Positions 1,899 to 64,000 of a stretch of DNA of 64,000 bases are shown here, piece by piece. The stretch lies in NCBI GenBank assembly GCA_017853275.1, contig JAFMJV010000001.1, positions 26,286-90,285 on the forward strand, written 5' to 3'. The translations under genes were made by a program, and so were the position numbers. The notes below the pieces were generated by a model. It was given only the letters and a program-made list of their open reading frames with translations. It did not search any database and was not told where the DNA came from. Numbering within the stretch: position 1 is the first letter of the stretch; every line of letters begins with the position of its first letter. Origin of the DNA: Chloroflexota bacterium. Lineage in GTDB: Bacteria > Chloroflexota > Limnocylindria > Limnocylindrales > CSP1-4.

Positions 1899-1927
1899 CG
1901 CGCTAGCATCGGAGAGAGCGGGCCGCC

Positions 1928-3921: not shown

Positions 3922-3923
3922 GC

Positions 3924-8178: not shown

Positions 8179-8185
8179 CCCGTCG

Positions 8186-11464: not shown

Positions 11465-11546
11465 TCCGTCGGCGGGCTACCATCGCGGAGATCGTCGCGG
11501 GCCGCCGCCGTAGGCCCGCCCGGTCTCAGCGGAGCGATCCTGCCCT

Positions 11547-13043: not shown

Positions 13044-13046
13044 GCG

Positions 13047-15022: not shown

Positions 15023-15024
15023 CC

Positions 15025-15864: not shown

Positions 15865-15964
15865 GACCGGCGCAGCGGCGGAGCGGGGAGGAGGGACAAC
15901 GGCACCAACGGACGATAGGAGCGCCCCGTCCCCCCGTCAAACGCCTGCCGTCGCACCCCGTGGC

Positions 15965-15970
15965 TAGACT
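15965..15970 (+). promoter_or_regulatory. -10-like box TAGACT (GCTAGACT), 6 nt before GTG 15977: leaderless-type promoter
   Basis: gGCTAGACTcggcgaGTG in the wzm/GT2 divergent intergenic region. Confidence 0.4.
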
Positions 15971-15976
15971 CGGCGA

Positions 15977-17005: not shown

Positions 17006-17901
17006 CCCGCGCGGCGCTCCGTGAGCGCCAGCCAGGCACGGACGGGAGCGCGGAGGGGTCGCGGCGTGCCGGCCGCCAGGTGGAGCTCCCAGTAGCGCCG
17101 GTGGGAGCGGGCGATCTCGCCGCGCACGCGATCGCGGATCGCGCGCTGCGCCGCATCGAGCTCCGCCTCCGGCCGCCCGATCCCGCTCGACGCCCCCTTC
17201 ACGTGGAGGACCCGCGCCGAGCCCACGTAGACGATCCGCGACCCGGCCGCCCGGACCCGCGCGCACAGGTCGAGATCCTCGGCGTAGAAGCGGTAGGCCT
17301 CGTCCCAGCCCCCGACACGGGCGAGAAGGGCGGACCGGACGAGGAGGAAGGCTCCCGAGCAGGCCTCCACCTCGTGGGTCGATGCCGGATCGAGCCAGCC
17401 GAGCGTGTAGCGCGCGAGACGCCGCGAGCGCGGGAAGCGCCGGTCGAGCCCGAGCGTATGGAAGAGGGCTGCCGACGGCGTCGGGAGCCCGCGGTGGCAG
17501 GCGTGGTCCCGTTCTCCGTCCGGCCGCACGAGCTGCGCGGTCACGATCCCGGTCCGGGGGTCCGCCTCCAGCGCGTCCAGGCAGGCGGCGAGCGCGTCCG
17601 GGCCCAGCTCCGTGTCCGCGTTCAGGAAGAGGAGCCGGTCCGCCTCCGGGGCAGCGGCAGCGCCGCGGTTGCACGACGTCGCGTAGCCCTTGTTCCCGGC
17701 GTCCGGGCGCGGCCGCAGGTCGAAGGCGCCGGCGACCGGGTCGAGCGCCGCCGTGAGCGCGGCAGGGTCGCTCTCGTTGTCCACCACGACGACGATCTCC
17801 GGCCGCCGGGTGGAGGCGGCGAGGCTCGCGAGGCAGCCGGCGAGAAGGTCGTGGCGCCGGTGGTTCACGACGACCACCGCGAGGATCCCCCCGCCGCTCA
17901 C
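16984..17901 (-). CDS. Glycosyltransferase family 2
   Basis: LAVVVVNHRR, VVVDNESD, NKGYATSCNRG, LFLNADTEL, CSGAFLLVR, FYAEDLDLCARV. GTG 17901 in a GTGA overlap with the upstream DUF4012 gene stop. Confidence 0.88.
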   Translation of the reverse strand: MSGGGILAVVVVNHRRHDLLAGCLASLAASTRRPEIVVVVDNESDPAALTAALDPVAGAFDLRPRPDAGNKGYATSCNRGAAAAPEADRLLFLNADTELGPDALAACLDALEADPRTGIVTAQLVRPDGERDHACHRGLPTPSAALFHTLGLDRRFPRSRRLARYTLGWLDPASTHEVEACSGAFLLVRSALLARVGGWDEAYRFYAEDLDLCARVRAAGSRIVYVGSARVLHVKGASSGIGRPEAELDAAQRAIRDRVRGEIARSHRRYWELHLAAGTPRPLRAPVRAWLALTERRAGQGRGSA

Positions 17902-19814: not shown

Positions 19815-19917
19815 GGCAGGGTCGATCGGAAGGTCCTCGGCTCGGGGGGCCCGGATCGGGGGTCCGGGGGGCCGTGGCTATACTGCCCCGACGCGGCCCT
19901 TCCCGTCCGAGGTCAGC

Positions 19918-21855: not shown

Positions 21856-22823
21856 TGCGGGTCCGCGCCACCACCGCCCTCCTCGCCGTCCTCCTCGTCG
21901 CGCTGGCCGCACCCGTCCCCGCGGCCGCCGCACGGCCCCTTGCGCTCGGGGTCGGGCACCTCCCGAGCGACGACATCGCGGAGGTCGATTCCTTCACTGC
22001 GAGCGTGGGCGGGGTCGCGCCGGCGATCTGGACCCTCTGGTCCGCGTGGGGCGGGCCGACCGCGCCCTTCCCCTCCGCCACCTTCCTCGATGCGCTCCGC
22101 GACCGTGGGATCGCCCCGATGGTGAACTGGGAGCCGGTCGACCCCTCGCGGCAGCTGAGCAGCCGCTACACGTATGCCCGGATCGCCTCGGGACGCCATG
22201 ACGCCTACATCCGGGGCTGGGCCCGGGCGGCGGCCGCCTGGGGTGGGACGGTCTACCTGCGCTTCGCCCACGAGATGAACGGGACCTGGTTCCCGTGGGG
22301 GATCGGGCGCTTCAGCAACACCGCAACCACCTTCAAGGAGGCCTGGCGCCATATCGTCCGGATCTTCCGTGCGGAGGGAGCGCGCAACGTCCGCTTCGTC
22401 TGGAGCCCCTACATGCTCTGCCCCTGGTGCGGCCGCTACTCCACGATCTATCCCGGGAACCGGTGGGTCCACCACACGAGCTTCAGCGCCTTCGACTGGC
22501 AGACGGAATGGCTGCCGGCGCGTTCGATGACGTCGCTCTTCCTTCCCTCGGTGCGCGCCCTCCGCCAGGTGGCACCCAGGAAGTCGATCATCGTCGCGGA
22601 GACGGGGACGCCGGCGATCGAGGGCTACAAGGCGGACTGGATCCGGGACGGCTATCCGGCGGTCCACGAGGCCTTCCCGGAGATCCTCGCGATCGTCTGG
22701 TTCGACGTGCGGACCGAGGACGCCGACCACCCGGACTGGCGGCTCAGCCAGCCCCCCGCCGCGCTCGCCGCCTACGCCGCGATCGTCGCCCAGCCGCAGT
22801 TCCAGGGCCGCCTCATCCCCTGA
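21852..22823 (+). CDS. Secreted glycoside hydrolase family 26-like protein
   Basis: Signal peptide MMRVRATTALLAVLLVALAAPVPAAAA. LRFAHEMNGTWFPWG (acid/base Glu motif) and SIIVAETG (nucleophile Glu motif). GTG 21852 (GTGA overlap) or ATG 21855. Confidence 0.8.
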   Translation: MMRVRATTALLAVLLVALAAPVPAAAARPLALGVGHLPSDDIAEVDSFTASVGGVAPAIWTLWSAWGGPTAPFPSATFLDALRDRGIAPMVNWEPVDPSRQLSSRYTYARIASGRHDAYIRGWARAAAAWGGTVYLRFAHEMNGTWFPWGIGRFSNTATTFKEAWRHIVRIFRAEGARNVRFVWSPYMLCPWCGRYSTIYPGNRWVHHTSFSAFDWQTEWLPARSMTSLFLPSVRALRQVAPRKSIIVAETGTPAIEGYKADWIRDGYPAVHEAFPEILAIVWFDVRTEDADHPDWRLSQPPAALAAYAAIVAQPQFQGRLIP

Positions 22824-48789: not shown

Positions 48790-49311
48790 GTGTCCGCTGA
48801 GACGCTCCGCTCCAAGATCCGCGAGGTCCCCGGCTTCCCCAAGCCCGGCATCCTCTTCTACGACATCACCACCCTCCTCCGCGACCGCGAGGCCTTCCAC
48901 GAGGCGGTGGAGCTGATGGTCGCCCCCTACCTGGAGTCCGGCATCGATCTCGTCGTGGGGATGGAATCGCGCGGCTTCATCTTCAGCGCCCCGATGGCCT
49001 ACCGGCTCGGGGCCGGGATGGTCCCCGTGCGCAAGCTGGGCAAGCTCCCCGCCGAGACGATCAGCGTGGAGTACAGCCTGGAGTACGGGACGAACACCCT
49101 GGAGATCCACCGCGACGCGATCGAGCCCGGCCAGCGGGTCCTCGTCGTGGACGACCTCCTCGCCACCGGCGGCACGGTCGTGGGGACGATCGACCTGATC
49201 CGCCAGCTCAAGGGAGAGGTCGTCGGCTGCAGCTTCCTCGTGGAGCTCGACTTCCTCAACGGCAGGGAGCGGCTCGGTGGGATCCCGATCAACAGCATCG
49301 TCCGGTACTGA
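48790..49311 (+). CDS. apt: Adenine phosphoribosyltransferase
   Basis: PGFPKPGILFYDIT, VGMESRGFIF, VLVVDDLLATGGT (PRPP motif). GTG start; GCTAGACT box at 48746-48753. Confidence 0.95.
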   Translation: MSAETLRSKIREVPGFPKPGILFYDITTLLRDREAFHEAVELMVAPYLESGIDLVVGMESRGFIFSAPMAYRLGAGMVPVRKLGKLPAETISVEYSLEYGTNTLEIHRDAIEPGQRVLVVDDLLATGGTVVGTIDLIRQLKGEVVGCSFLVELDFLNGRERLGGIPINSIVRY

Positions 49312-49315
49312 CGGG

Positions 49316-50769
49316 ATGGCACCCGAGCCGGGTGCCATCGAGCCGGAGCCGCCGGAAGCGCCCGGCGCGGACGGCCATGACCCCGCGCGCCGCCGCTTCT
49401 TCCGCTCCTTCGGCCGCCAGGCCTTCGACACCGCCGCCCAGGTCGTGGGGATCACCGGTGCCGTCTCCAAGGCCACGACCCAGGTCGCGGTCAACGTGGC
49501 CGGCATCCTCGCCGACCCGGACGGGACGGCGGAGCGGCTGAGCGCGGAGCCGGACGAGCCGGAGGCCGCCGCAGCACCCGCCGGAGCGAGCGGTCCGCCG
49601 GTCTCCCACCGGAGCCCCTATCGCCTCGCCGGCGACACCCTCCACCTGCTCGACCAGCGCTCCCTCCCCGGGCGGCTCGAGGAGCAGGTCTGCCGTCGCG
49701 GCTCGGATGTCGCCTTCTATGCGCGGGTCGGCGCGGTCGCCGGTGGCGCGCTCCTCGGCCAGCTCGCCGCCTACGGGCTCGCGCTCACCGCCCGCGAGGT
49801 CGTCCCCCGCTCGCATCCGGCGCGCCTCGCGGAGTGGGGCCGGGTCCTCCGGACCCTCCGCGGCATGCGCTCCGAGTCGCGGATGCTCGAGGTCGCGCTC
49901 GCCCGGATGGACGCGCTCCACGCGAGCTACGGCCCGGATGCGGACCCGGACCGGATCGCCCGCGACCTGCGTGCGGAGGCGGACCGGATCGCGATGGAAT
50001 CGCAGCTCGACCACGCGACGATCGCGCGCACGATCGCCGCCCGCCTCCCGTGCCCGGACGAGCGCCCGCTCGGGGTCCTCGTCCATGGCGCGCCGGGGAC
50101 CTCCACGGCCGGGATGGTCGGCGGAGCGCTCAACGCGCTCGCGCTCGTCGCGCAGGAAGGCCGGCCGATGCAGGTCTGGCTGACCGAGGGCGGGCCCGCC
50201 CTCCCCGGCCCGCGGCTCGCGGCGTGGGAGCTCGGCAATCACGGGATCGAGCCGGTCATCGTCCCGGACGCCGCGGTCGGCTCTCTTCTCGATACCCAGC
50301 CGGTCGACATCGTCCTCCTCGGGGCGGAGCGGATCTCCGTCGACGGCGAGGTCGCGAACGTCGTGGGGAGCCGGGTCGTGGCGGAGCTCGCCGCCGCTGC
50401 CCGCCGCGGTCCGGTCCCCGTCTGGGTCGCCGCGCCCGCGGAGGCGATCGATCCGGCGACGGCGGAGACGCCGATCGTCGTCGGGGAGCTCCGGCCGGCG
50501 CGCGAGATCCTCACCTACCGCACGGGCTGGAAGCCCGACCGGCCGGCCGCCTACATCCCCGTCCTCGACATCGTCCCCGCGGACCGGGTCGCCCTCGTCG
50601 TGACGGAGATCGGCGTCACGGAGCCCGGGCCCGGGACGCTCGCCCCCGTCCTTGCGGCGCGGCTCGCCCGCCGCCCCGCCCCGCCGGCGCCCTGGCAGCC
50701 CGCGCCCGGGGAGCCGGAGCCCGCCGGGGAGCCGGAGCGCGAGCCCGCCGCGGAGCCCGGCGCGCCGGC

Positions 50770-50773
<4 letters not shown>
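49316..50773 (+). CDS. eIF-2B alpha/beta/delta-family (MtnA-like) protein, divergent, with ~115-aa N-terminal extension
   Basis: Family core: LLDQRSLP...VLVHGAPGTSTAG...RLAAWELGNHGIEPVIVPDAA...LLGAERISVDGEVANVVGS...VWVAAP. The positions I align to the catalytic Cys and Asp of MtnA read Gly and Glu. Confidence 0.7.
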
Positions 50774-52967
<2,194 letters not shown>

Positions 52968-52977
52968 CGGTCTCCCT

Positions 52978-52993
52978 CCGGGGCTGCCCCCGG
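52978..52993. terminator. Short hairpin between convergent ahcY and the unknown gene
   Basis: CCGGGG-CTGC-CCCCGG. Confidence 0.3.
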
Positions 52994-53001
52994 GCGGCCC
53001 G

Positions 53002-53724
53002 CTAGGCGGGGCTCGCGTCCCCGAGGAGCGCCGCGGTGGACGCCGCATCCAGGCGGGCGAGCAGCCGCTCGCCCGCCGCCCATGCCTCCGCGTGGTCCCT
53101 GCGCAGCCGGAACTCCTCGTGGGCCACGGTGCGCGCAAGGTCCGCGTGGAGCCGGCGCAGGATCTCGCTCTGCCGGTGGCGTCGCGCGGTCTCCGCCACG
53201 AAGCACGCGTAGCGCGCGAGCGGGTCCGCGGTCGCCTCCTCCGCCTCGAAGCGGGCATCGCCTCCGGCTGCCGCGCGGAGCCGGGCGAAGAAGGCCCCCA
53301 CATCCGCCGCCCCCTCGTCCCAGCCCTGGGAGTGGCCGCCCCGCCGCAGCAGGGGGGCGGGCGAGGAGAAGACCGCGATCAGGGCCTCATCGATCCGCTC
53401 CGCCTGGACCCGTCCGCCGAAGGAGTACCACTCGTTCGTGGCCCGGACCCGGTCCACGACGCGGATCATCCCCCACGTCGTCTCCCGGTCGAGCGGGAGA
53501 CGCGCGGTCCGGTCGAGCACCTGGCTCGTCCCCCGGCCCGCTTCCGCGACCCAGTACTCCACGCTCTCCGGGTCGTAGTGGGCGAGCGTCGGGTGGGGGC
53601 GGATCGCGACGAGCAGCCAGCTCGGCCCGGCGATATCCGGCAGGTCGGAGTGCGCGAGGAAGCCCCACGCAGCGAGCATGGGCGCCGCGCCCGCCGGGTC
53701 GATCGCTTCCGGGATCCGAGTCAT
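53002..53724 (-). CDS. Hypothetical protein (240 aa), no recognisable motifs
   Basis: ATG 53724 with GGGAGG 6 nt upstream. Balanced composition, unlike shadow ORFs. High GC3 in this frame. Confidence 0.6.
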   Translation of the reverse strand: MTRIPEAIDPAGAAPMLAAWGFLAHSDLPDIAGPSWLLVAIRPHPTLAHYDPESVEYWVAEAGRGTSQVLDRTARLPLDRETTWGMIRVVDRVRATNEWYSFGGRVQAERIDEALIAVFSSPAPLLRRGGHSQGWDEGAADVGAFFARLRAAAGGDARFEAEEATADPLARYACFVAETARRHRQSEILRRLHADLARTVAHEEFRLRRDHAEAWAAGERLLARLDAASTAALLGDASPA

Positions 53725-53833
53725 CGCAGTCCTCCCGGGGGAACGGTAGCGCAGGATCCCCGGGGGTGGGCCCGCACGGGCAGGGCGGGCGCCCCCGCCC
53801 GTGCTACGATTCAGCCGAGCAGGGAAGGAGCCC

Positions 53834-55057
53834 ATGACCAGCATCCTCGATGCCAAGCGCTATCTCTTCACGTCCGAGTCCGTGACCGAAGGTCACCCGG
53901 ACAAGATGTGCGACCAGATCTCGGACGCGATCCTCGACGCGATCATCGCGAAGGATCCGGACGCGCGGGTCGCCTGCGAGACCGCCACCACCACCGGCCT
54001 CGTCGTCGTCATCGGGGAGATCACCACCTCCGCCTACGTGGATATCCAGACGGTCGTCCGCGAGACGGTCAAGGGGATCGGCTACACCAAGGCGGAGTAC
54101 GGCTTCGACTACGAGACCTGCGGCACGCTCGTCTCGATCAAGGAGCAGTCGCGCGATATCGCCCAGGGCGTGGACGCGGCCGCGGAGGTCCGGGACGATC
54201 CCCGGTCCCGGGACGAGCTCGGCGCGGGCGACCAGGGGATGATGTTCGGGTTCGCCTGCCGCGAGACCCCGGAGCTCATGCCCCTCCCGATCGCGCTCGC
54301 GCACCGGATGGCACGCCGGCTCGCCGAGGCCCGCAAGAGCGGCCAGCTCGCCTACCTGCGCCCGGACGGCAAGACCCAGGTCACCGTGGAGTACGCGGAA
54401 GGGCGCCCCGTCGCGGTCCCCACCGTCGTCCTCTCCACCCAGCACGACCCGGACGTGGACCCGGAGCGGCTCCGCCGCGAGGTGATCGATGCGGTGATCA
54501 TGCCCACGATCGACCCCGCCCTCCGGACGCAGGAGCCGGTCATCTACGTCAACCCCACCGGCCGCTTCGTGACCGGCGGGCCCAAGGGCGATGCCGGCCT
54601 CACCGGCCGCAAGATCATCGTGGACACCTACGGCGGGATGGCCCGTCACGGCGGCGGCGCCTTCTCCGGCAAGGACCCGACGAAGGTCGACCGGTCCGCC
54701 GCCTACGCGGCGCGCTGGGTCGCCAAGAACATCGTCGCGGCGGGGATCGCGGACCGCTTCGAGGTCGAGGTCGCCTACGGGATCGGGATCGCGCACCCGC
54801 TCAGCCTCTCCGTGGAGAGCTTCGGCACGGGCCGGATCCCGGACGAGCGGATCGTGGAGCTGATCGGCGCCCACTTCGACCTCCGCCCCTCGCGGATCAT
54901 CGACACCCTCGAGCTGCGCAACCCGATCTACCGCCAGACGGCGGCCTACGGGCACTTCGGTCGCGCGGACCTCGATCTCCCCTGGGAGCGCACGACGAAG
55001 GCCGAGGCTCTCGCCCGCGACGCCGGTCTCCCGGCGCCGCCGCCCCGCCCGGTCTGA
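53834..55057 (+). CDS. metK: S-adenosylmethionine synthetase
   Basis: [57 protein letters not shown]; GCTACGAT box at 53803-53810. Confidence 0.97.
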
Positions 55058-55112
55058 TCCCGGGCGGCCGAGGCCGTCCCATCCGGGACCCGGAGCCCCC
55101 GGCCGGCTCTGC

Positions 55113-56222
55113 TCAGGAGCGCCGGCCGCGCAGCTCCTCTGCCACCGCGAGATAGCGGTCGGCCGTCTTCGCCACGGTCAGCTCCTCGCGTAGCCGCACG
55201 ACCGCCGGGTCCACCTCCGGCAGGTCGCCCGCGAGCGCCTCGCGGACCGCCGCGGCGATCCGGTCCGGCTCCGGCTCCCCGAGGAAGCGGAGCGCACCCG
55301 GCACGCGTGCGTCGTACTCGCGGAAGCCGGGCAGGTCGCTGACGAGGATCGGCTTCCCGGCCGCGATCCAGGTGGAGAGCGACCCGGAGGCGGAGAGGTC
55401 CCGGAAGGGGAGAAGGGCGAGATGGCTCGCCGAGATCCAGGCCTCCAGGTCCTCCTCGGAGAGATAGCCGGTGACGCGCAGCCGATCCTCGATCCCGAGC
55501 TCCCTGCGGCGCTGCTTCACGACCCCGAGCACCTTGTCCCGGCCTGCCACGGGACCGCCCGCGTAGACGACGAGGACATCCTCCGGGAGCTGCGGGATCG
55601 CCTCCACGGTCGGCTTGTGCCCCTTCCGGCCGTAGATGAAGCCGAGGATCGTGACGACCCGCCGGTCCGCCACACCGAGCCGCTCGCGCGCCTCCGCCGG
55701 GCCGAGGGCGAGCCGGCGCTCCTCCACGAAGTGGGGGATGACGCGCAGCTTCTCCGCGGGGACGATCCCGCGCAGCCGCTCCACCTCCACCTCGGAGTGG
55801 ACGATCAGCCGGTCCGCGCTCCGGCCGAGCATGCGCAGGCTCCAGACCTCCGGCATCAGCCAGCGATCGCGGATCCGCGGGCGGTCGAAGACGTCATGAA
55901 GGGTCGCGATCAGCGGGCCGCGCCAGGCGCGTCGGAAGTCGAGGAAGCGGGCGACGGAGCGCGGGCCGCGTCCCCAGCCACGCCGGTTCCACTGCATGAG
56001 GACGACCTCGGCCCCCGCGTCCCGGAAGGCCGCCCCGTGGCGCCCGAGCCCGCCCGCCCGGCCCTCGAGGAGCCCGGCATCCGCCTCGATGATCCGCAGC
56101 TCCGGGCGGGCGGCGAGCTCGTCCGCGACGATCCGCGCGTAGCGCCGGACGCCGCTCTCCGGGCGGCCGACCTGGAGGATCCCGAGGGTGGGCCGGCCAT
56201 CGCCCCCCGAGCGCTCGGTCAC
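55113..56222 (-). CDS. GT-B glycosyltransferase, cassette A (GT4-like but lacking EX7E)
   Basis: Paralog of 58548..59627 (GILQVGRPESGVRRYARIVA, LHDVFDR, VIPHFVEE). C-terminal LSASGSLSTWIAAGKPILVSD sits where GT4 enzymes carry E-x7-E. GTG start. Confidence 0.8.
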   Translation of the reverse strand: MTERSGGDGRPTLGILQVGRPESGVRRYARIVADELAARPELRIIEADAGLLEGRAGGLGRHGAAFRDAGAEVVLMQWNRRGWGRGPRSVARFLDFRRAWRGPLIATLHDVFDRPRIRDRWLMPEVWSLRMLGRSADRLIVHSEVEVERLRGIVPAEKLRVIPHFVEERRLALGPAEARERLGVADRRVVTILGFIYGRKGHKPTVEAIPQLPEDVLVVYAGGPVAGRDKVLGVVKQRRRELGIEDRLRVTGYLSEEDLEAWISASHLALLPFRDLSASGSLSTWIAAGKPILVSDLPGFREYDARVPGALRFLGEPEPDRIAAAVREALAGDLPEVDPAVVRLREELTVAKTADRYLAVAEELRGRRS

Positions 56223-56226
56223 CCGC

Positions 56227-57339
56227 TCAGTCGCCGTAGCCGAGCGACCGGAGGAGCTCCGCCGAATCGGCCACGACCTGGCGCTGCTCGGCGGGGCTGA
56301 AGGTCCGCTTCCAGGAGCCCATCGATCCCTCCGAGGCGCGGTCGCACGCGGTGAGGAAGACCTCCCGCGAGGCGGGGTCCGTGATGCCCAGGAAGTCGAG
56401 GATCCGCGTCCCCTCCGTGCGCGGGTCCGTGACGAGCGATTCGTAGCGCAGCTCGTGGTAGCGGGACGGGCCGAGCGGGCGGCCGTCGCGGATCGCCGCC
56501 TCCGTGTAGCGCCGCCAGGACCAGATCATCCGGTGCGCGTCGCTCGTCGTCTCGAACTCCCGGACCCGCTCCTTCTCCACCCACCACGGAGCCCACGGGC
56601 CGTGGAGGTAGCCACCGGGCTCGCGCTTCCCGGAGGTCGCCTGGTCCAGGCGCAGCCAGGGCTGCTTGTAGTGCGAGGCCGCGGCATCCCGGCCGTCCCG
56701 GATGATGTGCACGAACTGGGCGTCCGGGAAGGCGCGCGCGAGGAAGGGGACGAGGAGCGCGTTCGTGGGCGTCTTCTCGCAGAAGCGGAGGTGGCCGTCC
56801 AGCTCGAGGCGGAGGAGCCAGGCGTAGACGGAGCGGAAGAAGAAGCGCGACCGGCGCTCGCTCCACAGCCCCTCGTAGACGTAGCGTCCGGCAGCCTTGG
56901 TGGCGGGGGGCTCGTGGTGATAGCTGATCTCCGGGACGTGCCCGAAGCAGTCGCCGAGGAAGGTGGTCCCGGAGCGCGCCGCGCCGATGATGAAGACCGC
57001 CCGCTTCAGGGACGGGAAGGCCGACGCGAGGAGGCGCTCGGGGGTGGGGCGGACGGGGCGCTCGAGGCGCCGGTAGTAGCGCTTCTCCGCGCGATAGGAG
57101 AGCCGGGCCCAGCGGTGGAGGTTGCGCAGGACGATCGGCGTCGGGGTGGCATCGATGTGCGCCGGCGGCCCGCCGCTCCCGGGGAGCGGCTCCTCGCCCG
57201 ACTCGGCAGGGGTCGCGAGGCCGAGGTCCGCGGCCGTCACGGCCGGATCGGCGCCCTCGATCGCCTCGATCGCGGGGACCGGGGCGGCCCCGTCCGGGCC
57301 CGCGGTGCTCGTCTCGTCGTCCCGGCTCGTCATCCCCAT
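56227..57339 (-). CDS. Sulfotransferase-family protein, cassette A (acidic disordered N-terminus)
   Basis: FIIGAARSGTTFL (5'-PSB loop type), HIIRDGRDAAASH (3'-PB type), YHELRYESLVTDP. Confidence 0.8.
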   Translation of the reverse strand: MGMTSRDDETSTAGPDGAAPVPAIEAIEGADPAVTAADLGLATPAESGEEPLPGSGGPPAHIDATPTPIVLRNLHRWARLSYRAEKRYYRRLERPVRPTPERLLASAFPSLKRAVFIIGAARSGTTFLGDCFGHVPEISYHHEPPATKAAGRYVYEGLWSERRSRFFFRSVYAWLLRLELDGHLRFCEKTPTNALLVPFLARAFPDAQFVHIIRDGRDAAASHYKQPWLRLDQATSGKREPGGYLHGPWAPWWVEKERVREFETTSDAHRMIWSWRRYTEAAIRDGRPLGPSRYHELRYESLVTDPRTEGTRILDFLGITDPASREVFLTACDRASEGSMGSWKRTFSPAEQRQVVADSAELLRSLGYGD

Positions 57340-57468
57340 CCCCGTCGGCGGTCGTCATCCGGCCGCCGCGCACCTCGCGCCGCGCCCGCATCAGCCTGCG
57401 CATTCTACCGGTCCGGGGCGGAGCCGAGTCCCCGGCGCCGGTCCGCCCCGCGGGGCCGCCGCGAGCGC

Positions 57469-57474
57469 TACGAT
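57469..57474 (+). promoter_or_regulatory. -10-like box TACGAT (GCGCTACGAT), 6 nt before ATG 57481 (leaderless manC)
   Basis: gcGCTACGATcgggcgATG. Confidence 0.4.
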
Positions 57475-57480
57475 CGGGCG

Positions 57481-58551
57481 ATGTACGCCGTCATCATGGC
57501 GGGCGGAGGCGGGACGCGCCTCTGGCCGCTCAGCCGTGCCGCCCGCCCCAAGCCCTTCCTGCCGCTCCTCGGGGAGACGACCCTCCTCCAGGCGACGGTC
57601 GCCCGTCTCGCGCCGCTCATCGGCCCCGAGGACGTCCATATCGTCACGGACGGACGCTACCTCCCTCTCGTGCGCGAGCAGCTCCCCGCCGTCCCCGCCG
57701 CCAACCTCCTTGCCGAGCCGATGGGCCGGAACACCGCCGCGGCCGTCGCCTACGCCGCCGCCGCGATCGACCGCCCGGACGACGAGGTGATGGTCGTCCT
57801 CCCCGCCGATCACCGGATCGCGGACGAGGCCGGCTTCCGGGCCGCCCTCGCCGCCGCCGCGGAGCGCGCCGCGAACGGTGACCTCGTCACGCTCGGCATC
57901 ACCCCCTCGGGGCCGGAGACCGGCTACGGGTATGTCCTCGCCACCGGAGACGCCGTCGCGGTCCGGGGGATGCCCGCCTGGCGCGTCGAGCGCTTCGTGG
58001 AGAAGCCCACGGTGGAGCGCGCCCGCGAGCTCCTTGCCGGGGGCCGCGCCTCGTGGAACGCCGGGATCTTCGTGTGGCGCCGCGATGCGCTCATCGCGGG
58101 CCTCCGGCGCCACGCGCCGGAGATCCTCGAGCCCCTCCTCGCCGCCCCTTCCCCGGAGGCGCTCGCCGCGCTCTACCCGGGGCTCCGGGCGACCTCGATC
58201 GACTACGCGCTCCTCGAGCCTGCCTCGCTCGAGGGCCGGGTCGCGGTCGTCCCGGTGGAGGTGGGCTGGAGCGACCTCGGGTCGTGGGCGGCGCTTCTCG
58301 AGGCCGGGGTGGCGGAGGGCGACGGGACGGTCGTCAGCCGCGCGGAGGACGGGGCGGAGGTCCTCACCGTCGGCGGCCGCGATCTCCTCGTCCATGCCGC
58401 GGGCGGGCGGCTCGTCGCCGTCGTCGGGCTCGAAGGGGCGATCGTCGTGGATACGCCGGACGCCCTCCTCGTCGTCGGCCGGGAGGCTGCCCAGGACGTG
58501 AAGCGGATCGTGGACGCGCTCGCTGCCCGCGGGGACCGCGACCGGCTCTAG
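57481..58551 (+). CDS. manC: Mannose-1-phosphate guanylyltransferase (no isomerase domain)
   Basis: MYAVIMAGGGGTRLWPLSR..KPF, GRNTAAAV, VLPADH, GYGY, FVEKP, WNAGIFVW, EVGWSDLGSW. Confidence 0.9.
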   Translation: MYAVIMAGGGGTRLWPLSRAARPKPFLPLLGETTLLQATVARLAPLIGPEDVHIVTDGRYLPLVREQLPAVPAANLLAEPMGRNTAAAVAYAAAAIDRPDDEVMVVLPADHRIADEAGFRAALAAAAERAANGDLVTLGITPSGPETGYGYVLATGDAVAVRGMPAWRVERFVEKPTVERARELLAGGRASWNAGIFVWRRDALIAGLRRHAPEILEPLLAAPSPEALAALYPGLRATSIDYALLEPASLEGRVAVVPVEVGWSDLGSWAALLEAGVAEGDGTVVSRAEDGAEVLTVGGRDLLVHAAGGRLVAVVGLEGAIVVDTPDALLVVGREAAQDVKRIVDALAARGDRDRL

Positions 58552-59627
58552 CGGCCCGCGGCCTCCGTCCAGACCGCGCGGTAGCGCGCGACGATGCGCG
58601 GGATGGCGAGCGCGTCGGCGAGCCGCGCGACCGCCGGATCGGGCGATGGCGGCGGGTCGGCGAGGATCTCCGCGATCCGCGCCGCCAGGCCCTCGGCGTC
58701 GAGCGGGTCGACGACGCGCATCGCCCCCGGCGCCAGCGCGTCGTACTCCCGGAACTGGGGGAGCCCGGAGGTGACGATCGGCCGTCCCGTGGCGATCCAC
58801 GTGGAGACGGACCCGGAGGCGGACATCTCGCGGAAGGGGGCGAGCGCCACGTCGCTCGCGGCGAGGATGGTGCGCAGCTCCGCGTCCGGGACCCAGCCGG
58901 TGAAGCGGACCCGATCGGCGACCCCGAGCCGGCGCGCCTCCGTGGCGAGCTCGTCGCTGCGGGCCTCGCGCCCCTCGATCGGGGAGCCCGCGAAGATCGC
59001 CACCACATCGTCCGGGAGGAGGGGGAGCGCGGCGAGGACGATCCCGTGACCCTTCCGGCGCGTCATGAAGCCCTGGAGGGTGATGACCCGCCGCCCCGCG
59101 AGGCCGAGCGCCGCCTTCGCCGCGTCCCGCTCGGGCAGCCCGTCCAGCCGCTCCACGAAGTGCGGGATGACCGTCACCGTTCCGCGACCGGTCAGGGTGC
59201 GCAGCCGCCGGACCTCCTCCTCTCCGTGGACGATGACGCGTGCGGCGCGCCCGAGGAGGCGCCGGGTCGCCATCGCGGCCGGGTGGAGGAAGCGGTCCCG
59301 GAAGCCCTCGCGCTCGTACACGTCGTGGAGGGTGACCACGAGCGGCCGGCGGCAACCCGCGAGGAAGAGCTCGAGGTGGGGGAGGGCCCACCGGACGCCA
59401 CCCCAGTCGGCGAGCTTCCACTGGACCTGGACGACATCCGTCCCGGCGAGCGTCCGTGCCGCCGCCGAGATCCCGCGCCGGCCGGCGTCCCGCGGCCCGG
59501 CATCGGCCTCCACGACCTCGATCCCATCGGCCTCCGCTGCCCCCTCCGCGATGATCCGCCCGTAGCGCCGGACCCCGCTCTCCGCCTTGCCGAGGTGGAG
59601 GACGCCGACCCGGAGCGGGCGGCTCAC
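58548..59627 (-). CDS. GT-B glycosyltransferase, cassette B (GT4-like but lacking EX7E)
   Basis: GVLHLGKAESGVRRYGRIIA, LHDVYER, VIPHFVER, MSASGSVSTWIATGRPIVTSG. GTG 59627 in a GTGA overlap with the sulfotransferase stop. Confidence 0.8.
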   Translation of the reverse strand: MSRPLRVGVLHLGKAESGVRRYGRIIAEGAAEADGIEVVEADAGPRDAGRRGISAAARTLAGTDVVQVQWKLADWGGVRWALPHLELFLAGCRRPLVVTLHDVYEREGFRDRFLHPAAMATRRLLGRAARVIVHGEEEVRRLRTLTGRGTVTVIPHFVERLDGLPERDAAKAALGLAGRRVITLQGFMTRRKGHGIVLAALPLLPDDVVAIFAGSPIEGREARSDELATEARRLGVADRVRFTGWVPDAELRTILAASDVALAPFREMSASGSVSTWIATGRPIVTSGLPQFREYDALAPGAMRVVDPLDAEGLAARIAEILADPPPSPDPAVARLADALAIPRIVARYRAVWTEAAGR

Positions 59628-60439
59628 CGCGCGCCCGGGGCGCGCAGCGAGCGGAGGAGGTCGCCGGAGCTGCGCGCCAGGAGGAGCCGGAGGAGCGGGT
59701 CGAGCCGCTGCCCGCCGCTCCCCACGCGGGAGCGGTAGATCGCCCCGCTCTCCCCACCCTCGGCGCGGCGCTGGGCGGTGAAGCGCCGGTAGCGCTCGGT
59801 GGCCGCGTGCTCCTGCTCGTCGAAGCGGAGGACGACCGGGTCCCACGGCTCGCCGAGGAAGGCGAAGAGCGGCCGGAGCGTCCCCTCGGGATCGGCGACG
59901 AGCGCCTCGTAGCGGACCTCGTGGTAGCGATCCGCGGTGAGGCCGCCGGCGAGGCTGCGGGCCGCCTCCACGTAGCGGCGCCACTCCCCGTTCGCCATCC
60001 GGGCTCCCGAGCGCCAGCCCCAGCGGTCGCGGGCGGAGGCGACGACATCCCGTCCGTCGCGCAGGAGATGGACGTAGAGGGCGTCCGGGAAGAGCTCCCC
60101 GATGAAGGGGAGGAGGAGCGTGTAGGTGGGGTCCTTCTCCGCCCAGCGCCGCTTCCCGCGCCCGGCCAGGACATCCGCCTGGAAGCCGGTGTAGAGGTCG
60201 CGGATCCGTCCGATCCAGTAGGCGCGCGGGAAGCCGTAGGGCTCCACCATCCGCCAGTGGCGGCCCACGATCGGCTCCAGCTCCCGGAGGAAGTGGGTCT
60301 CCTCGCCGCACGAGATCGCGGGGTGGGAATCGAGGATCAGCCGGAGGAGGGTCGTCCCGGAGCGCGGCGCACCGACGATGAAGATCGGGCGCGCGGAAGC
60401 CGGGGGGCCGGAGAGGGGGGACCGGTCGGCGTCGCTCAC
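59624..60439 (-). CDS. Sulfotransferase-family protein, cassette B
   Basis: FIVGAPRSGTTLL, HLLRDGRDVVASA, YHEVRYEALVADP. GTG start. Confidence 0.82.
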   Translation of the reverse strand: MSDADRSPLSGPPASARPIFIVGAPRSGTTLLRLILDSHPAISCGEETHFLRELEPIVGRHWRMVEPYGFPRAYWIGRIRDLYTGFQADVLAGRGKRRWAEKDPTYTLLLPFIGELFPDALYVHLLRDGRDVVASARDRWGWRSGARMANGEWRRYVEAARSLAGGLTADRYHEVRYEALVADPEGTLRPLFAFLGEPWDPVVLRFDEQEHAATERYRRFTAQRRAEGGESGAIYRSRVGSGGQRLDPLLRLLLARSSGDLLRSLRAPGAR

Positions 60440-60563
60440 GTCCGGTCAAGGATACCGGCCGGGCGCACGGGGGACCCTGCCGCTCCCCGTCCGGTCGAGG
60501 CGCTACGATGAGCGCTCCGCCGGACCCTCCCCATCGGCCCGGCGCCACGAGGAGCACGAGCGA

Positions 60564-62042
60564 GTGACGGAGCCGACCGCGACCCCGACCCCGCCGATCG
60601 TCTTCGGCACGGACGGGTGGCGCGCCCGGATCGGCGAGGACTACACGTTCGAGAACGTCCGGCGCTGCGCGCAGGGCGTGGCGGACTGGCTGATCGAGAG
60701 CGGGACCGCGGGCAAGGGCGTCGTCGTCGGCTATGACCGGCGCTTCGCGAGCGAGCACTTCGCCCAGGCCGCGGCGGAGGTCCTCCTCGCCCACGACATC
60801 CCGGTCGCGCTCGCGCGGGAGGCGATCCCCACCCAGATGACCTCCTACCTCGTCGTCGAGGAGGGGCTCGCCTGTGGCGTCATGATCACCGCCTCCCACA
60901 ACCCCTGGACGGACAACGGCTTCAAGGTGAAGTCGCCCACCGGCTCGGCGGCGGACGCCGCGATCCTCTCGGTGATCGAGCGTTCGATCCGCGCCCATGC
61001 GGCGGACGAGCCGCCGGTCCGGCCCCTTGCGGACGGTGAGGCAGCCGGCCTCGTCAGCCGCCCGGATCCCTTCCCCGGCTATGCCCGCTACGTGGCCCGG
61101 AGCCTGGACCTGGACCGGCTGCGCGCGGCGGACCTGCGCATCCTCGTGGATCCCCTCTACGGGTCCGGTGCGGGCTGGATCCCGCGCCTCCTCGCCGGCG
61201 GCCGGATCCGCGTGGACGAGATCCACGCGGAGCGGAACCCGTGGTTCGGCGGCGTGAACCCGGAGCCGATCCGTCCGAACGTGGACGAGGCGCTCGCGCG
61301 GATCGCGGCGGGCGGCTACGACCTCGGCCTCCTCCTGGACGGGGACGCGGACCGGGCCGGGGCCGCGGACGAGACCGGGACCTTCATCCACCAGCTCCAG
61401 GTGATGGGGCTTCTCATGTACTACCTCCTCGAGCACCGCGGGCTGCGTGCCCCGGTCGTCTCCACGATCAACGAGACCGCGATGGTCGGCCGGCTCGGCG
61501 CGCGCTACGGCGTGGATGTCCACGAGACGGCGGTCGGCTTCAAGTACGTCGGCCCGAAGATGATCGAGACGGGCGCGATGATGGGCGGCGAGGAATCGGG
61601 TGGATACGGCTTCGGGATGCACCTCCCGGAGCGCGACGGGATCTACGCCGACCTCCTCCTCCTCGACCTCTTCGTCCGCGAGCGCGAGGCGGGCCGCGCG
61701 CCGGTCTCCGCCGCCGTGCGGCACCTCCACGAGATCGCCGGTCCCTCCTTCTACCTGCGCACGGACGTCCACGCGGATCGCGCCGGCTACCCGGCCCTGA
61801 AGGAGCGCCTCCTGCGCGAGCTCGGGGCGCACGCGCCGGCCGCGATCGCCGGGGTCCCGGTCGTCCGGACCGACGCGCTCGACACGCGGGACGGCTACAA
61901 GTTCTGGACCGAGGACGGCTCCTGGCTCCTTGTCCGGTTCAGCGGCACCGAGCCGCTTGTCCGGGTCTATGCGGAGGCCGCGAGCGCGGAGCAGCGCGAC
62001 GCCTTCCTCGCCGAGGGTGGCCGGATGGTGAACGGGCGATGA
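60564..62042 (+). CDS. manB: Phosphomannomutase/phosphoglucomutase
   Basis: FGTDGWRA, active-site TASHNP, DGDADR, GGEESGG, RFSGTEPLVRVY. GTG 60564; ATG 60378 is rejected because it overlaps the divergent gene. Confidence 0.92.
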   Translation: MTEPTATPTPPIVFGTDGWRARIGEDYTFENVRRCAQGVADWLIESGTAGKGVVVGYDRRFASEHFAQAAAEVLLAHDIPVALAREAIPTQMTSYLVVEEGLACGVMITASHNPWTDNGFKVKSPTGSAADAAILSVIERSIRAHAADEPPVRPLADGEAAGLVSRPDPFPGYARYVARSLDLDRLRAADLRILVDPLYGSGAGWIPRLLAGGRIRVDEIHAERNPWFGGVNPEPIRPNVDEALARIAAGGYDLGLLLDGDADRAGAADETGTFIHQLQVMGLLMYYLLEHRGLRAPVVSTINETAMVGRLGARYGVDVHETAVGFKYVGPKMIETGAMMGGEESGGYGFGMHLPERDGIYADLLLLDLFVREREAGRAPVSAAVRHLHEIAGPSFYLRTDVHADRAGYPALKERLLRELGAHAPAAIAGVPVVRTDALDTRDGYKFWTEDGSWLLVRFSGTEPLVRVYAEAASAEQRDAFLAEGGRMVNGR

Positions 62043-63163
62043 CCGGCGAGCCGATCATGAGCGGGGGGATCCTGGACGACGCGGCCGCGTCCCGCCGTGC
62101 CGACCCGGCCGGGATGGCCGGGGAGGTGGCCCGGATCCCGGAGCAGATCCGTGACGCGTGGCGCATCTCCCGCACGCTCTCCCTCCCCGCGAGCCACACG
62201 AGCGCGACGGCGGTCGCCGTCCTCGGCATGGGCGGATCCGCGATCGGCGGCGATCTCGTGCGCTCGATCTGGTCCGACCGCCTCCGTGTCCCCGTCGAGG
62301 TCGTGCGCGGCTATGACCTGCCGGGGTGGACAGGGGCCGGGAGCCTCGTCGTCGCCAGCTCCTACAGCGGCGCCACGGAGGAGACCCTCTCCGCCGTCGA
62401 GCAGGCGTTCACGCGTCGCTGCCCGGTCGCCGTGATCACCACCGGCGGTCCGCTGGGCGCCGTCGCCGAGCGGGCCGGGCTCCCATCCCTCCGCTTCCCC
62501 GGGGGCGGCCAGCCACGTGCCGCGGTCGGCTACGCCGTCACGCTTCTCGCCGGGCTCCTGGAGCGGGGTGGCTACCTCGCCCTCCCGGACGAGGAGATCG
62601 AGGCCGGGGCGCAGGCCGCGGAGGCTGCCCTCGCCGCATGGGGCCCGGACGTGCCCACGGAGCGGAACCTCGCCAAGCGCCTCGCCTGGGCGATGCTCGA
62701 CCGCCTGCCGGTGGTGGAGGCGAGCGGATCGCTCGCGGCGGTCGCCCGGCGCTGGAAGACGCAGCTCAACGAGAATGGGAAGACGATGGCCGTCTGGGAG
62801 GAGCTCCCGGAGGCGAACCACAACACGGTCGTGGGGCACCCGCACCCGGGCACGATCCGCGACCACCAGCTCGTCGTCTTCCTCACCTCCGCGCTCGACC
62901 ACCCGCGGAACGCGCTCCGCTCGCGCCTCTCCGCGGCGCTCGTCGCGGATGCGGGGATCCTCCACGAGGAGGTCCGCGTCGAGGGCGCCACACGCTTCGC
63001 CCAGGCCCTCTCGGCGATCGTCCTCGGGGACCTCGTGAGCGTCTATCTCGCCTATCTCTACCGGGCGGACCCCACGCCGGTGGAGACGATCGCCGGCCTC
63101 AAGGCCGCGCTCGCCGCGGCGAGCCGGTCGGATGCTGCGCCGGGGGCGAACGGACCCTCCTGA
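62039..63163 (+). CDS. Bifunctional phosphoglucose/phosphomannose isomerase (SIS-domain type)
   Basis: AVLGMGGSAIGGD, VASSYSGATEET, RWKTQLNENGK, ELPEANHN. ATGA overlap with the manB stop. Confidence 0.88.
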   Translation: MTGEPIMSGGILDDAAASRRADPAGMAGEVARIPEQIRDAWRISRTLSLPASHTSATAVAVLGMGGSAIGGDLVRSIWSDRLRVPVEVVRGYDLPGWTGAGSLVVASSYSGATEETLSAVEQAFTRRCPVAVITTGGPLGAVAERAGLPSLRFPGGGQPRAAVGYAVTLLAGLLERGGYLALPDEEIEAGAQAAEAALAAWGPDVPTERNLAKRLAWAMLDRLPVVEASGSLAAVARRWKTQLNENGKTMAVWEELPEANHNTVVGHPHPGTIRDHQLVVFLTSALDHPRNALRSRLSAALVADAGILHEEVRVEGATRFAQALSAIVLGDLVSVYLAYLYRADPTPVETIAGLKAALAAASRSDAAPGANGPS

Positions 63164-63319
63164 CGGGGCGCGACGGCACGGCTCCCATGCCCCCCGCGCG
63201 GGTGTACGCTCGCGGTGTCGTCGGAGCCCGGCCCCCGCAGCCGATGGGGTGGGCCGGTCGCTCCGGGTGAGTGGGTCACGACCCCTCGCGGGCCGGACCC
63301 GGGCAAGGAGGTCCCCGCG

Positions 63320-63598
63320 ATGCACTCGAGCGTGATCGGGAAGATCGAGAAGGCCCATCGCTATGCCCGCGAGCCCGAGCGGATCAGCCTGCGGCGGCTG
63401 GAGGCGGGGTTCCAGGGCGACAACGACAGCTACGAGGTCGTCCTCGGAGCGGACGGCTGGAGCTGCAGCTGCCATTCCTTCCACAGCCTCCACGGTTGTG
63501 CGCACATCCTCGCGCTCCAGGATCTGCTCGGCCGCATCCTGCCGGAGAACGCCCGCCTCTCCGGTCTCTTCGAGCCCGCGGGCGTCGGCGCCGGCTGA
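63320..63598 (+). CDS. Small stand-alone SWIM zinc-finger protein
   Basis: AAGGAGG SD 8 nt upstream. WSCSCHSFHSLHGCAH fits CxCx(n)CxH. Confidence 0.7.
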   Translation: MHSSVIGKIEKAHRYAREPERISLRRLEAGFQGDNDSYEVVLGADGWSCSCHSFHSLHGCAHILALQDLLGRILPENARLSGLFEPAGVGAG

Positions 63599-64000
63599 CG
63601 GACCGGCGGCCGCGCCGCGCACGCGCAGGCTCGCCTCGAGATCCCCGCGGCCGCGATCCCAGCGGAGCGCGATCCGGATGCGCCAGGTCCCCGCTCCGGG
63701 CGGCCCCGGGAGCGCCAGCCGGGTCGTGCCCGGCGGCAGATCCGGATGCTCCACGAGCCGGACCGCCCGGCGGCCCTCCGGCGGGCCGATCGGCTCCGCG
63801 ACGACCCGCACCGCCGCGAAGGCACCGCCGTCCGAGGCGGTGAGGATGAGCGGCTCCTCGGGGCTGCGCATCCGGAGCTCCGGGAGCGGCATCCCCGGCG
63901 CGCCCGGCAGACCCGCGCAGGTCCCGAGGTAGCAGCCGGGGCCGTTCCGGGCGATCACCGTCCGGCCGCCGCCGAAGAGGACGACCCCCGGGGCCGAGGG
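63599..64000 (-). CDS. Possible 3' part of a minus-strand gene running off the window (unresolved: no in-frame stop)
   Basis: Codon-position GC pattern and a protein-like translation (...VVLFGGGRTVIARNGPGCYLGTCAGLPGAPGMPLPELRMRSPEEPLILTASDGGAFAAVRVVAEPIG...). However, the frame stays open until 61967, antisense to well-supported genes. Confidence 0.3.

Follow-up and report, generated by a model that had tools for sequence, protein, structure and literature searches.

What is made by the paired sulfotransferase and glycosyltransferase genes that an uncultured bacterial class keeps among its genes for GDP-mannose synthesis? The question is raised by a locus of seven genes in a 64,000-nucleotide stretch of DNA from a Chloroflexota bacterium of the class Limnocylindria (GenBank assembly GCA_017853275.1, contig JAFMJV010000001.1, positions 26,286 to 90,285), referred to hereafter as the window. 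The locus contains two cassettes, each with a sulfotransferase (ST) gene followed by a glycosyltransferase (GT) gene, which we designate ST-A and GT-A, and ST-B and GT-B. A first-pass annotation, made from the letters of the DNA, had proposed that the cassettes build a sulfated mannoglycan. Our analysis favors, with a probability of about 0.55, the assembly of a sulfated and probably mannose-containing glycoconjugate by two ST-GT modules on the cytoplasmic side of the membrane. A sulfated sugar product is predicted from the genes, whose description is well supported; we infer the chemistry wholly from them.

Organization of the locus

The first-pass annotation had placed two ST-to-GT cassettes on the minus strand. 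Both the reading frames and the Pfam domains bore this out, and all seven open reading frames (ORFs) of the locus translated without internal stops at the coordinates it gave. Cassette A consists of ST-A (56227..57339), a Sulfotransfer_3 enzyme of the type that uses 3'-phosphoadenosine 5'-phosphosulfate (PAPS), and GT-A (55113..56222; 369 aa, pI 10), a GT4-like glycosyltransferase of the GT-B fold class that lacks the EX7E motif and carries a 'SASGS' sequence in its place. ST-A has a poorly conserved N-terminal extension of ~110 residues and is given a start two codons later in the public gene call (368 aa); it lies upstream of GT-A with a spacing of 4 nt. In cassette B, ST-B (59624..60439), a PAPS-type Sulfotransfer_3 enzyme resembling the tyrosylprotein sulfotransferases (TPSTs), is translationally coupled to GT-B (58548..59627; 359 aa, pI 9.9), a GT4-like enzyme of the same EX7E-less subfamily as GT-A. 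The stop of ST-B and the start of GT-B overlap in GTGA.

The three remaining genes are on the plus strand. manC (57481..58551) encodes a protein of the mannose-1-phosphate guanylyltransferase type without the C-terminal cupin domain of phosphomannose isomerase (PMI). A phosphohexomutase of the phosphomannomutase/phosphoglucomutase (PMM/PGM) family, 'manB' by context and called PMM below, is encoded at 60564..62042 and has PGM_PMM domains I-IV. The last gene (62039..63163) encodes a bifunctional phosphoglucose isomerase/PMI (PGI/PMI; bact-PGI_C, 139 bits, and two NCBIfam cut-offs passed). Divergent intergenic region A (57340..57480) separates ST-A from manC and region B (60440..60563) separates ST-B from PMM. 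The stop codons of GT-B and manC overlap convergently (CTAG), and the stop of PMM overlaps the start of PGI/PMI by 4 nt (62039-62042). The G+C content of the window is 75%.

No transmembrane segment was found in any of the four cassette proteins. Three of them have a pI of 9.8-10 and ST-A has a pI of 7.8, while the three sugar-activation enzymes have pIs of 5.0-5.7. The basic pI and the lack of transmembrane segments in the cassette proteins fit anionic substrates or peripheral binding to the membrane.

The sulfotransferases

Both STs scored far above the cut-off of 27 bits for Sulfotransfer_3 (PF13469), ST-A with 93.4 bits and ST-B with 131.7 bits. When ST-B was compared with the sequences of the PDB, the closest were human and tick TPSTs (TPST1/2, E 4e-19), followed by the ST domains of CurM and of olefin synthase and by mycobacterial Stf1 and Stf9. 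An AlphaFold model of ST-B (predicted local distance difference test score, pLDDT, 87.8) ranked the known folds as the sequence did, with a TM-score of 0.75 to TPST1/2, and its top 50 Foldseek matches in the PDB were all sulfotransferases or sulfotransferase-fold enzymes. The likeness of the STs to TPSTs is one of overall similarity, by which the proteins are not classed as TPSTs. ST-A showed weak similarity to solved structures, and its N-terminal extension is of low complexity and not conserved. The sole NCBIfam model matched by ST-A and ST-B was that of NoeE, a fucose sulfotransferase, with 49 bits against a cut-off of 500.

Residues for PAPS binding and catalysis were kept in 36-40 locus-derived orthologues of each ST. 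ST-B residues R26-S-G-T-T30, E47, K102, R127, D128 and S135 were invariant among 37 sequences (36 ST-B relatives and ST-A). The motifs common to ST-B and the TPSTs are the PRSGTT 5'-phosphosulfate-binding (5'-PSB) loop, the Glu of CGEET, the Lys of EKDP and the RDGRD...S 3'-phosphate-binding (3'-PB) motif; E47 and K102 align with the catalytic E99 and K158 of TPST2. The counterparts in ST-A, R122/S123/T125 (5'-PSB), E143, K189 and R214...S222 (3'-PB), were kept in 36-38 of 38 orthologues (E143 in all 38, K189 in 36). The first-pass annotation had named the lack of a PAPS pocket as the finding that would speak against its ST calls. Since 5'-PSB, 3'-PB and the catalytic Glu and Lys are present in both STs, neither appears to lack the pocket, and both look catalytically competent as judged from these residues.

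The match to TPSTs raises the question of whether the STs are protein tyrosine sulfotransferases of the TPST/RaxST kind, in which case the GT-like partners might glycosylate or bind the protein target or serve as non-catalytic scaffolds that present the substrate. Although TPST1/2 are the best matches of ST-B in both sequence and structure, and the catalytic R, E, K and S residues align, ST-B also matches NoeE (49 bits) and enzymes of the CurM/Stf type. No conserved candidate for a gene encoding a TPST-type substrate peptide was found in the locus or in the contexts of its relatives, and the neighbor of 92-95 aa beside the cassettes is a cytoplasmic CxC..CxH protein. The conserved site of the GTs and the company that the module keeps in other phyla, both described below, also bear on this explanation, to which we give almost no weight.

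The glycosyltransferases

GT-A and GT-B scored above the gathering scores for Glyco_trans_1_4, Glycos_transf_1 and Glyco_transf_4 (47 bits for GT-A with Glyco_trans_1_4), so that the domain calls of the first pass held in Pfam for GTs and STs alike. The AlphaFold model of GT-B (pLDDT 93.9; predicted template modeling score, pTM, 0.91) has the two-Rossmann GT-B fold, and Foldseek returned 378 PDB matches at E<=0.001 with GT4 enzymes first. The best matches were the retaining GT4 enzymes GlgM, MshA, HepE, sucrose-phosphate synthase (SPS), BshA, PimA and PimB'. The models of GT-B and ST-B, with a GT-B fold and a sulfotransferase fold respectively, agree with the domain calls.

HMMER alignments with SPS and HepE place S269 and T276 of GT-B at the positions of the two EX7E glutamates. 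These positions are Ser or Ala and Thr or Ser in 47 of 48 copies from the loci and across 125 diverse representatives of the family. The loop that replaces the motif reads [SA]ASGSL[SA]TW, within the signature PFxxx[SA]-A-S-G-S-L-[SA]-T-W, and S271 is invariant in the 125 representatives; GT-A has SASGSLSTW at residue 277. K192, G186 and G214 are likewise invariant among the 125, and H101-D102 and PHFVE are nearly so. The position of the Arg in GRxxxxKG is taken by F, Y or W, and R191 precedes the Lys in 80 of the 125 (positions assigned by eye against the PimA motif). A canonical GT4 domain from another part of the window, which served as internal control, retains SEGFGLVIAEAMG. When 1.84 billion representatives were searched with a profile, at least 574 clusters at 50% identity were returned (E<=1e-30), nearly all of them full-length matches, and there is no NCBIfam equivalog that covers the subfamily of GT-A and GT-B. 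On sequence grounds, GT-A and GT-B are members of an uncharacterized GT4-like subfamily and not canonical GT4 mannosyltransferases.

Missing EX7E glutamates could mean that the GTs have lost catalysis, as scaffolds for protein sulfation might. The strong conservation of the replacement residues argues instead for an active enzyme with an altered donor site: purifying selection on the loop and on K192, G186, G214 and H101-D102 points to an active site, not to decay.

The first pass had not recognized the architecture as that of a characterized pathway, and no homologue of the cassette proteins carried an assignment to a known product in NCBIfam or in the homologue searches.

Conservation across Limnocylindria

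Conservation was examined in the contexts of homologues and in a scan of GTDB species representatives, read with tblastn. The first-pass annotation had suggested that co-occurrence of the cassettes with the sugar-nucleotide genes be sought in related genomes. The same order of nine genes was found in ~37 species-level metagenome-assembled genomes (MAGs) of the class (loci L002, L004, L006 and L009-L049, mostly distinct GTDB species representatives), so the association of the cassettes with manC, PMM and PGI/PMI is no accident of a single genome. The genes run PGI/PMI, PMM, ST-B, GT-B, manC, ST-A, GT-A, metK and ahcY, with the two ST-GT pairs transcribed in one direction and the other genes in the opposite direction. 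PMM is the most conserved gene of the block (73-87% identity to the window protein in relatives), followed by ST-B (59-77%), manC (58-77%), ST-A (57-77%), GT-A (48-70%, ~35 loci), GT-B (43-68%) and PGI/PMI (39-63%). GT-A is apparently absent from two genomes (L010 and L011). One relative carries an IS481-family transposase with rve and HTH domains between GT-B and manC (L004, 11246-12106), and the order of its block is otherwise unchanged. Because the order is kept across the class, the block is a vertically inherited core locus of Limnocylindria and not a mobile island. ST-B was found with an identical sequence on an ENA metagenome contig. Homologues of the GTs and STs were nearly all from uncultured Chloroflexota, and those with names were from Candidatus Limnocylindrales. 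These names speak against an actinobacterial origin of the DNA, which its 75% G+C might have suggested. The class has also been called Ellin6529, Edaphomicrobia and 'Eulabeiota' (bioRxiv 10.1101/2021.08.23.457424).

In another locus (L003; ENA ERZ25039462, contig_34155) the genes of the block are mostly split (PMM 299 aa, manC 186 aa, ST-A 157 aa, metK 48 aa). Such splitting is typical of uncorrected indel errors in long reads and not of pseudogenization.

Pairing of ST and GT genes outside the class

Homologous modules were found in two other phyla, where they lie in polysaccharide loci. In Salisaeta longa the order is ST, GT, a Wzx flippase, GT2, an ST-A-like gene, an ST-B-like gene and GT, with a 4-bp overlap between the final pair. 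On a metagenome contig (L008) GT and Wzx are followed, after several other genes, by ST and GT, and in Salinibacter and Salinivenus MAGs one or more ST genes are followed by a GT gene. For Salinibacter ruber, genome papers report ST and GT genes within the O-antigen cluster (PMC6060240). A single ORF of Microbacterium sp. G2-8, which is in culture, encodes a GT followed by a Sulfotransfer_3 domain (L050, 7929-9833; NZ_JAHKSH010000001.1). NCBI lists its product as a 586-aa 'sulfotransferase', and the gene adjoins a Wzx flippase gene and four more ST genes; the GT part retains a Glu at the second EX7E position (SASGSMLEW). The opposite order, ST then GT, is found in the fusion protein P0245. Further fusions join GTs of the subfamily to domains of polysaccharide pyruvyl transferase, GT2, GT4 or GT61. 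The metagenome proteins P0314 and P0348 join a GT of the subfamily to polysaccharide pyruvyl transferase domains.

Wherever the GT was at least 32% identical to those of the window and upstream DNA was available, an ST gene preceded it or was fused to it. Strict linkage of the entire GT subfamily to STs was considered and rejected: a distant member (L051) has GT8-like and GT4-like neighbors, and P0314, a GT-pyruvyltransferase-GT fusion, adjoins genes for a GT4 enzyme and UDP-glucose dehydrogenase. As read from the domain architectures, the subfamily is joined repeatedly to enzymes that add anionic groups, either sulfate or a pyruvate ketal. To judge from the pairing and the fusions near Wzx and other such genes in these phyla, the module belongs to the assembly of a glycan at the cytoplasmic face of the membrane, ahead of the flipping step. 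The association with Wzx, GT2 and pyruvyl transferase points to glycans, contrary to what would be expected of enzymes that sulfate proteins.

The fusions also bear on the order of the reactions. If the ST acted first, on a nucleotide sugar or on the acceptor, the pocket of the GT might be specialized for a sulfated sugar substrate. The gene order in the locus and its relatives is always ST then GT, with translational coupling; both donor-site glutamates have given way to a strictly conserved loop rich in Ser and Gly in which S271 is invariant; the fusion partners add anionic groups (sulfate, pyruvate ketal), and the GTs are strongly basic. All of this would suit such a pocket, yet gene order need not match reaction order and the GT domain comes first in the Microbacterium fusion. 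Moreover, we know of no precedent for a sulfate-ester nucleotide sugar as a glycosyl donor. We consider prior action of the ST very unlikely.

GDP-mannose genes and the proposed function

The first-pass annotation described the route from fructose-6-phosphate to GDP-mannose as complete, and at the level of families this was supported in Pfam and NCBIfam. ManC matched NTP_transferase (143 bits) and ManC_GMP_beta-helix in Pfam. It reached 283 bits against TIGR01479 (GMP_PMI) over positions 1-349 of 467, below the cut-off of 373 because the PMI half is absent. The phosphohexomutase reached no equivalog cut-off; its best NCBIfam match was an archaeal-type GlmM family (267 bits, under the cut-off), and its role as a PMM is putative. 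PGI/PMI passed two, NF006426 (297.1, cut-off 295) and TIGR02128 (223.6, cut-off 213.9).

The mechanism we favor has two soluble modules of two enzymes, each a PAPS-dependent ST and a co-translated GT4-like GT, whose genes are interleaved with and divergently transcribed from those for the three enzymes that lead from fructose-6-phosphate to GDP-mannose. Each GT would add a hexose and its partner ST would esterify a hydroxyl with sulfate. GDP-mannose would be the sugar donor, as the conserved interleaved arrangement suggests. The acceptor would be anchored in the membrane, either polyprenyl-linked or a lipid, and the product would be exported by machinery encoded elsewhere. We infer the two donors (PAPS for the sulfate, GDP-mannose for the sugar), the acceptor, the product and the sequence of the two reactions solely from the genes and their settings. 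The presence of the GDP-mannose-dependent PimA and PimB' among the structural matches of GT-B was counted in favor of mannose.

Several findings weigh against this proposal. Solved GDP-mannose-dependent GT4 enzymes typically retain the EX7E glutamates and the Arg of GRxxxxKG, which GT-A and GT-B lack, and outside Limnocylindria the ST-GT module occurs without adjoining GDP-mannose genes. For these two reasons what remains of the first-pass term 'mannoglycan' is the adjacency of the cassettes to the GDP-mannose genes. PGI/PMI, PMM, manC, metK and ahcY are housekeeping genes, and their neighborhood could reflect inherited synteny and not function. Among solved structures, the closest relative of ST-B is an enzyme whose substrate is protein tyrosine and not a sugar. 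The locus contains no gene for a priming transferase, flippase or polymerase, the nearest being 38 kb off, and no priming transferase, flippase or ABC (ATP-binding cassette) exporter, or polymerase was found in the window between 51 and 64 kb or in the conserved block of the ~37 relatives. Finally, a motif scan for adenosine 5'-phosphosulfate (APS) kinase, ATP sulfurylase, CysD and CysH over 0.79 Mb of DNA (the window and the fetched loci) gave one spurious match and no gene for PAPS synthesis (cysC, cysNC, sat, cysQ); for the window this is as the first pass had reported. The literature on PAPS supply is mixed: one study found no PAPS synthase or sulfate adenylyltransferase in most freshwater Chloroflexi MAGs (PMC6169038), and another reports that many members of the lineage have sat and assimilatory sulfite reductases (bioRxiv 10.1101/2021.08.23.457424).

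Some of these findings would be explained if the product were a sulfated glycoconjugate other than a mannoside, with GTs that use another donor and with the GDP-mannose genes, metK and ahcY as syntenic housekeeping neighbors. Throughout the subfamily the EX7E motif is missing and an aromatic residue takes the place of the phosphate-binding Arg, neither manC nor PMM lies near the modules of Salisaeta, L008 and Microbacterium, and the genes that flank the locus belong to core metabolism. Mere synteny is, however, hard to square with interleaving, divergent promoters and overlapping convergent stops that have long been kept in ~37 genomes, whose proteins are as little as 43% identical, with an order left intact by the IS481 insertion between GT-B and manC in L004, and with the GDP-mannose users PimA and PimB' among the structural matches. 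We regard a non-mannoside product as unlikely.

The product might also be a small, soluble molecule that bears sulfate, such as a sulfated mannosyl compatible solute or metabolite; it would then be made wholly in the cytoplasm and would not be an envelope polymer. The enzymes of the locus are all soluble, no carrier or export genes accompany them, and the locus, which occurs throughout the class, is surrounded by genes of core metabolism. The enzymes that match the GT best in structure (GlgM, MshA, SPS, BshA) take small anionic acceptors, but because the Foldseek E-values of the GT4 enzymes lie close together (1e-15 to 1e-12) their ranking does not discriminate. In other phyla the module stands beside Wzx flippases and further GTs, and the fusions of the subfamily with GT2, GT4, GT61 and pyruvyl transferase point to polysaccharide assembly. 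A small-molecule product thus appears rather improbable, and a membrane-anchored glycoconjugate remains the reading we prefer.

Relationship between the two cassettes

The first-pass annotation regarded the two cassettes as duplicates. The peptides it quoted are present and paralogy at the protein level is clear, with GT-A and GT-B 44% identical over 358 aa (E 8e-79) and ST-A and ST-B 33% identical over 224 aa (E 4e-22). Duplication is apt for the GTs, which look like lineage-level paralogues, but not for the STs. ST-A is far closer to an ST of Salisaeta longa (46%, 234 bits) than to ST-B (33%, 81 bits), and Salisaeta also has an ST-B-like enzyme (32%). Because of this difference the STs are assigned, from these comparisons, to old and distinct subfamilies, without a recent duplication of the cassette.

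A patch of nearly identical DNA in the two GT genes (~56122-56160 and ~59545-59583) had been aligned by hand with 35 of 38 positions identical; our count is 36 of 39. The patch encodes the peptide ESGVRRYxRI, and the coding frames have ~90% or more G+C at third codon positions. Conservation of the protein and codon bias account for the identity, and no special mechanism is needed.

Divergent intergenic regions

The first pass had noted a 10-mer in both divergent regions upstream of the plus-strand genes, and this was confirmed. GCGCTACGAT has exactly two copies in the 64 kb (57465-57474 and 60500-60509), one in each region, where 0.15 were expected; a count of two was reached in 1 of 100 shuffles. 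It includes TACGAT, which ends 6 nt before the ATG of manC and 54 nt before the GTG of PMM. Region B also contains CAAGGATACCGG, adjoining the start of ST-B, which on the minus strand reads TATCCT 9 nt before the GTG. The close relative L002 has CTACGAT with the same spacing to manC, and GCGCTAGGAT ahead of PMM. Region A of L004 and L006 has a different -10-like hexamer, so that position and not exact sequence is kept in relatives; in region B CAAGnnTA is kept in four genomes. A scan of 54900-63700 for sigma-70 and terminator consensus sequences found nothing, as expected at 75% G+C. TACGAT is most simply a -10-like box, by its position. Because it ends 6 nt before the ATG, the mRNA of manC is likely leaderless, and the spacings suggest leaderless transcripts for both the manC and the ST-B divergent units. 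The 10-mer was rejected as a conserved operator: among eight loci it was present only in L001, the window's own DNA, and distant relatives have other hexamers.

Surroundings of the locus

The statement of the first pass that the window encodes no lipid carrier or export genes was incorrect, as a Bac_transf gene (1907-3355) and an ABC-2 pair (14207-15936) lie 38 kb upstream. They belong to a complete-looking glycan cluster of the ABC-transporter type, based on rhamnose (1907-19877), 38 kb from the locus. The cluster comprises the Bac_transf polyprenyl-phosphate sugar (priming) transferase, rmlC (3355-3921), rmlB (4790-5824, minus strand), rmlA (5824-6576, minus strand), an ORF of 511 aa of unknown function, a GT2-GT4 fusion of ~1,100 aa (8093-11464), a WsaF-like rhamnosyltransferase (11514-13043), a GT4 (13044-14222), the Wzt/Wzm ABC-2 exporter (minus strand), two GT2 genes (15968-17898) and a DUF4012 protein (17898-19877, minus strand). 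A GH26-like protein is encoded at 21846-22823. No evidence was found that links the rhamnose-type cluster to the ST-GT locus.

Other genes of the window are of the housekeeping kind: dnaK, dnaJ, prmA, mfd, accessory genes for molybdenum hydroxylase, mtnA, GNAT, ahcY and metK. Genes of the methionine/S-adenosylmethionine (SAM) cycle lie directly beside the cassettes (49199-55057), in a synteny kept across the class: an mtnA-like IF-2B gene (49199-50773), a GNAT/FR47 protein (50773-51633), ahcY (51630-52967) and metK (53801-55057). This cluster showed no evident functional link to sulfation. On the other side, a protein of 92-95 aa (63320-63598, plus strand) with a CxC...CxH pattern (WSCSCHSFHSLHGCAH, SWIM-zinc-finger-like) and no Pfam hit follows PGI/PMI in all relatives. 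Past the end of the window (L001, 4260-5969) is a gene for a conserved and apparently secreted protein of ~500-570 aa (569 aa in L001) with a HELGHIIGLGH metalloprotease motif and no Pfam hit. Both were considered as parts of the system, the former being cytoplasmic, and were rejected, as neither looks related.

Comparison with known systems

By gene content, the characterized system that comes nearest is the cluster for synechan (xss) in Synechocystis sp. PCC 6803 (PMC8205485). There PF00685 and PF13469 STs, two STs of distinct subfamilies, act with several GTs in the cytoplasmic assembly of a sulfated mannose-containing heteropolysaccharide. Unlike the present locus, the xss genes form a self-contained Wzx/Wzy cluster on a plasmid, which includes a flippase, a polymerase, a co-polymerase and regulators. 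The Limnocylindria locus consists of two ST-GT pairs with EX7E-less GTs, is chromosomal and class-wide, and is interleaved with GDP-mannose genes in a housekeeping neighborhood. The O-antigen region of Salinibacter ruber and the Salisaeta longa locus hold true homologues (ST-A-like 46%, ST-B-like 32%, GT 41%; PMC6060240, L005), and Salisaeta shares the ST-to-GT order and the 4-bp overlap. The Salinibacteraceae genes differ in that they lie in a variable surface-polysaccharide region with Wzx and GT2, have a single GT to two STs and are not accompanied by GDP-mannose genes.

Individual enzymes have relatives of other kinds. PimA and PimB' carry the canonical EX7E motif and the GR...KG arginine, where GT-A and GT-B have S...T and an aromatic residue. 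They share the GT-B/GT4 fold and a soluble or peripheral character without transmembrane segments at ~22% identity (PDB 2gej, 3oka). Human TPST1 and TPST2 (PDB 5wrj, 3ap1; E 4e-19, TM-score 0.75) have the PRSGTT loop, the Glu of CGEET, the Lys of KDP and the RDGR...S motif in common with ST-B. They reside in the Golgi membrane and modify acidic peptides, whereas ST-B is soluble, bacterial and co-translated with a GT, at ~22-25% identity in structural alignments. NoeE, NodH and LpsS, and Stf1 and Stf9 (PDB 2zq5, 2z6v), are bacterial PAPS-dependent STs that act on the sugars of glycolipids or lipo-oligosaccharides, and Stf1 and Stf9 appear in both the sequence and the fold searches with ST-B. 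Unlike the STs described here, they have no dedicated GT partner of the subfamily and no link to GDP-mannose genes, and scores against the rhizobial and mycobacterial enzymes were far under the cut-offs (49 versus 500 bits).

Implications

In papers up to 2026 the sulfated glycans of bacteria are still presented as essentially a cyanobacterial feature (PMC8205485; PMC13390465), and a 2026 paper on Limnocylindria mentions neither sulfate, sulfotransferase, mannose nor the cell wall (PMC13212565). One may speculate further that the 'SASGS' GTs are a class adapted to anionic (sulfated or pyruvylated) sugars, with the ST acting before or in complex with the GT, and that Limnocylindria make a class-wide sulfated mannoside as a core component of the envelope or cytoplasm. 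We hold this extension to be doubtful; if true, the mannoside would be the first of its kind beyond those of cyanobacteria and the special glycolipids that rhizobia and mycobacteria make.

The work defines an uncharacterized GT4-like subfamily with a remodeled donor site, whose genes repeatedly lie next to, or are fused with, those of enzymes attaching anionic groups. With Salisaeta longa and Microbacterium sp. G2-8 as cultured carriers of the module, experiments are possible without culturing Limnocylindria. In an entire class that is common in soil and freshwater yet uncultured, the ST-GT locus belongs to the conserved core of the genome. Its product, if it exists, would be a chemotaxonomic marker of the class, a sink for sulfate in soil and a determinant of the charge of the cell surface.

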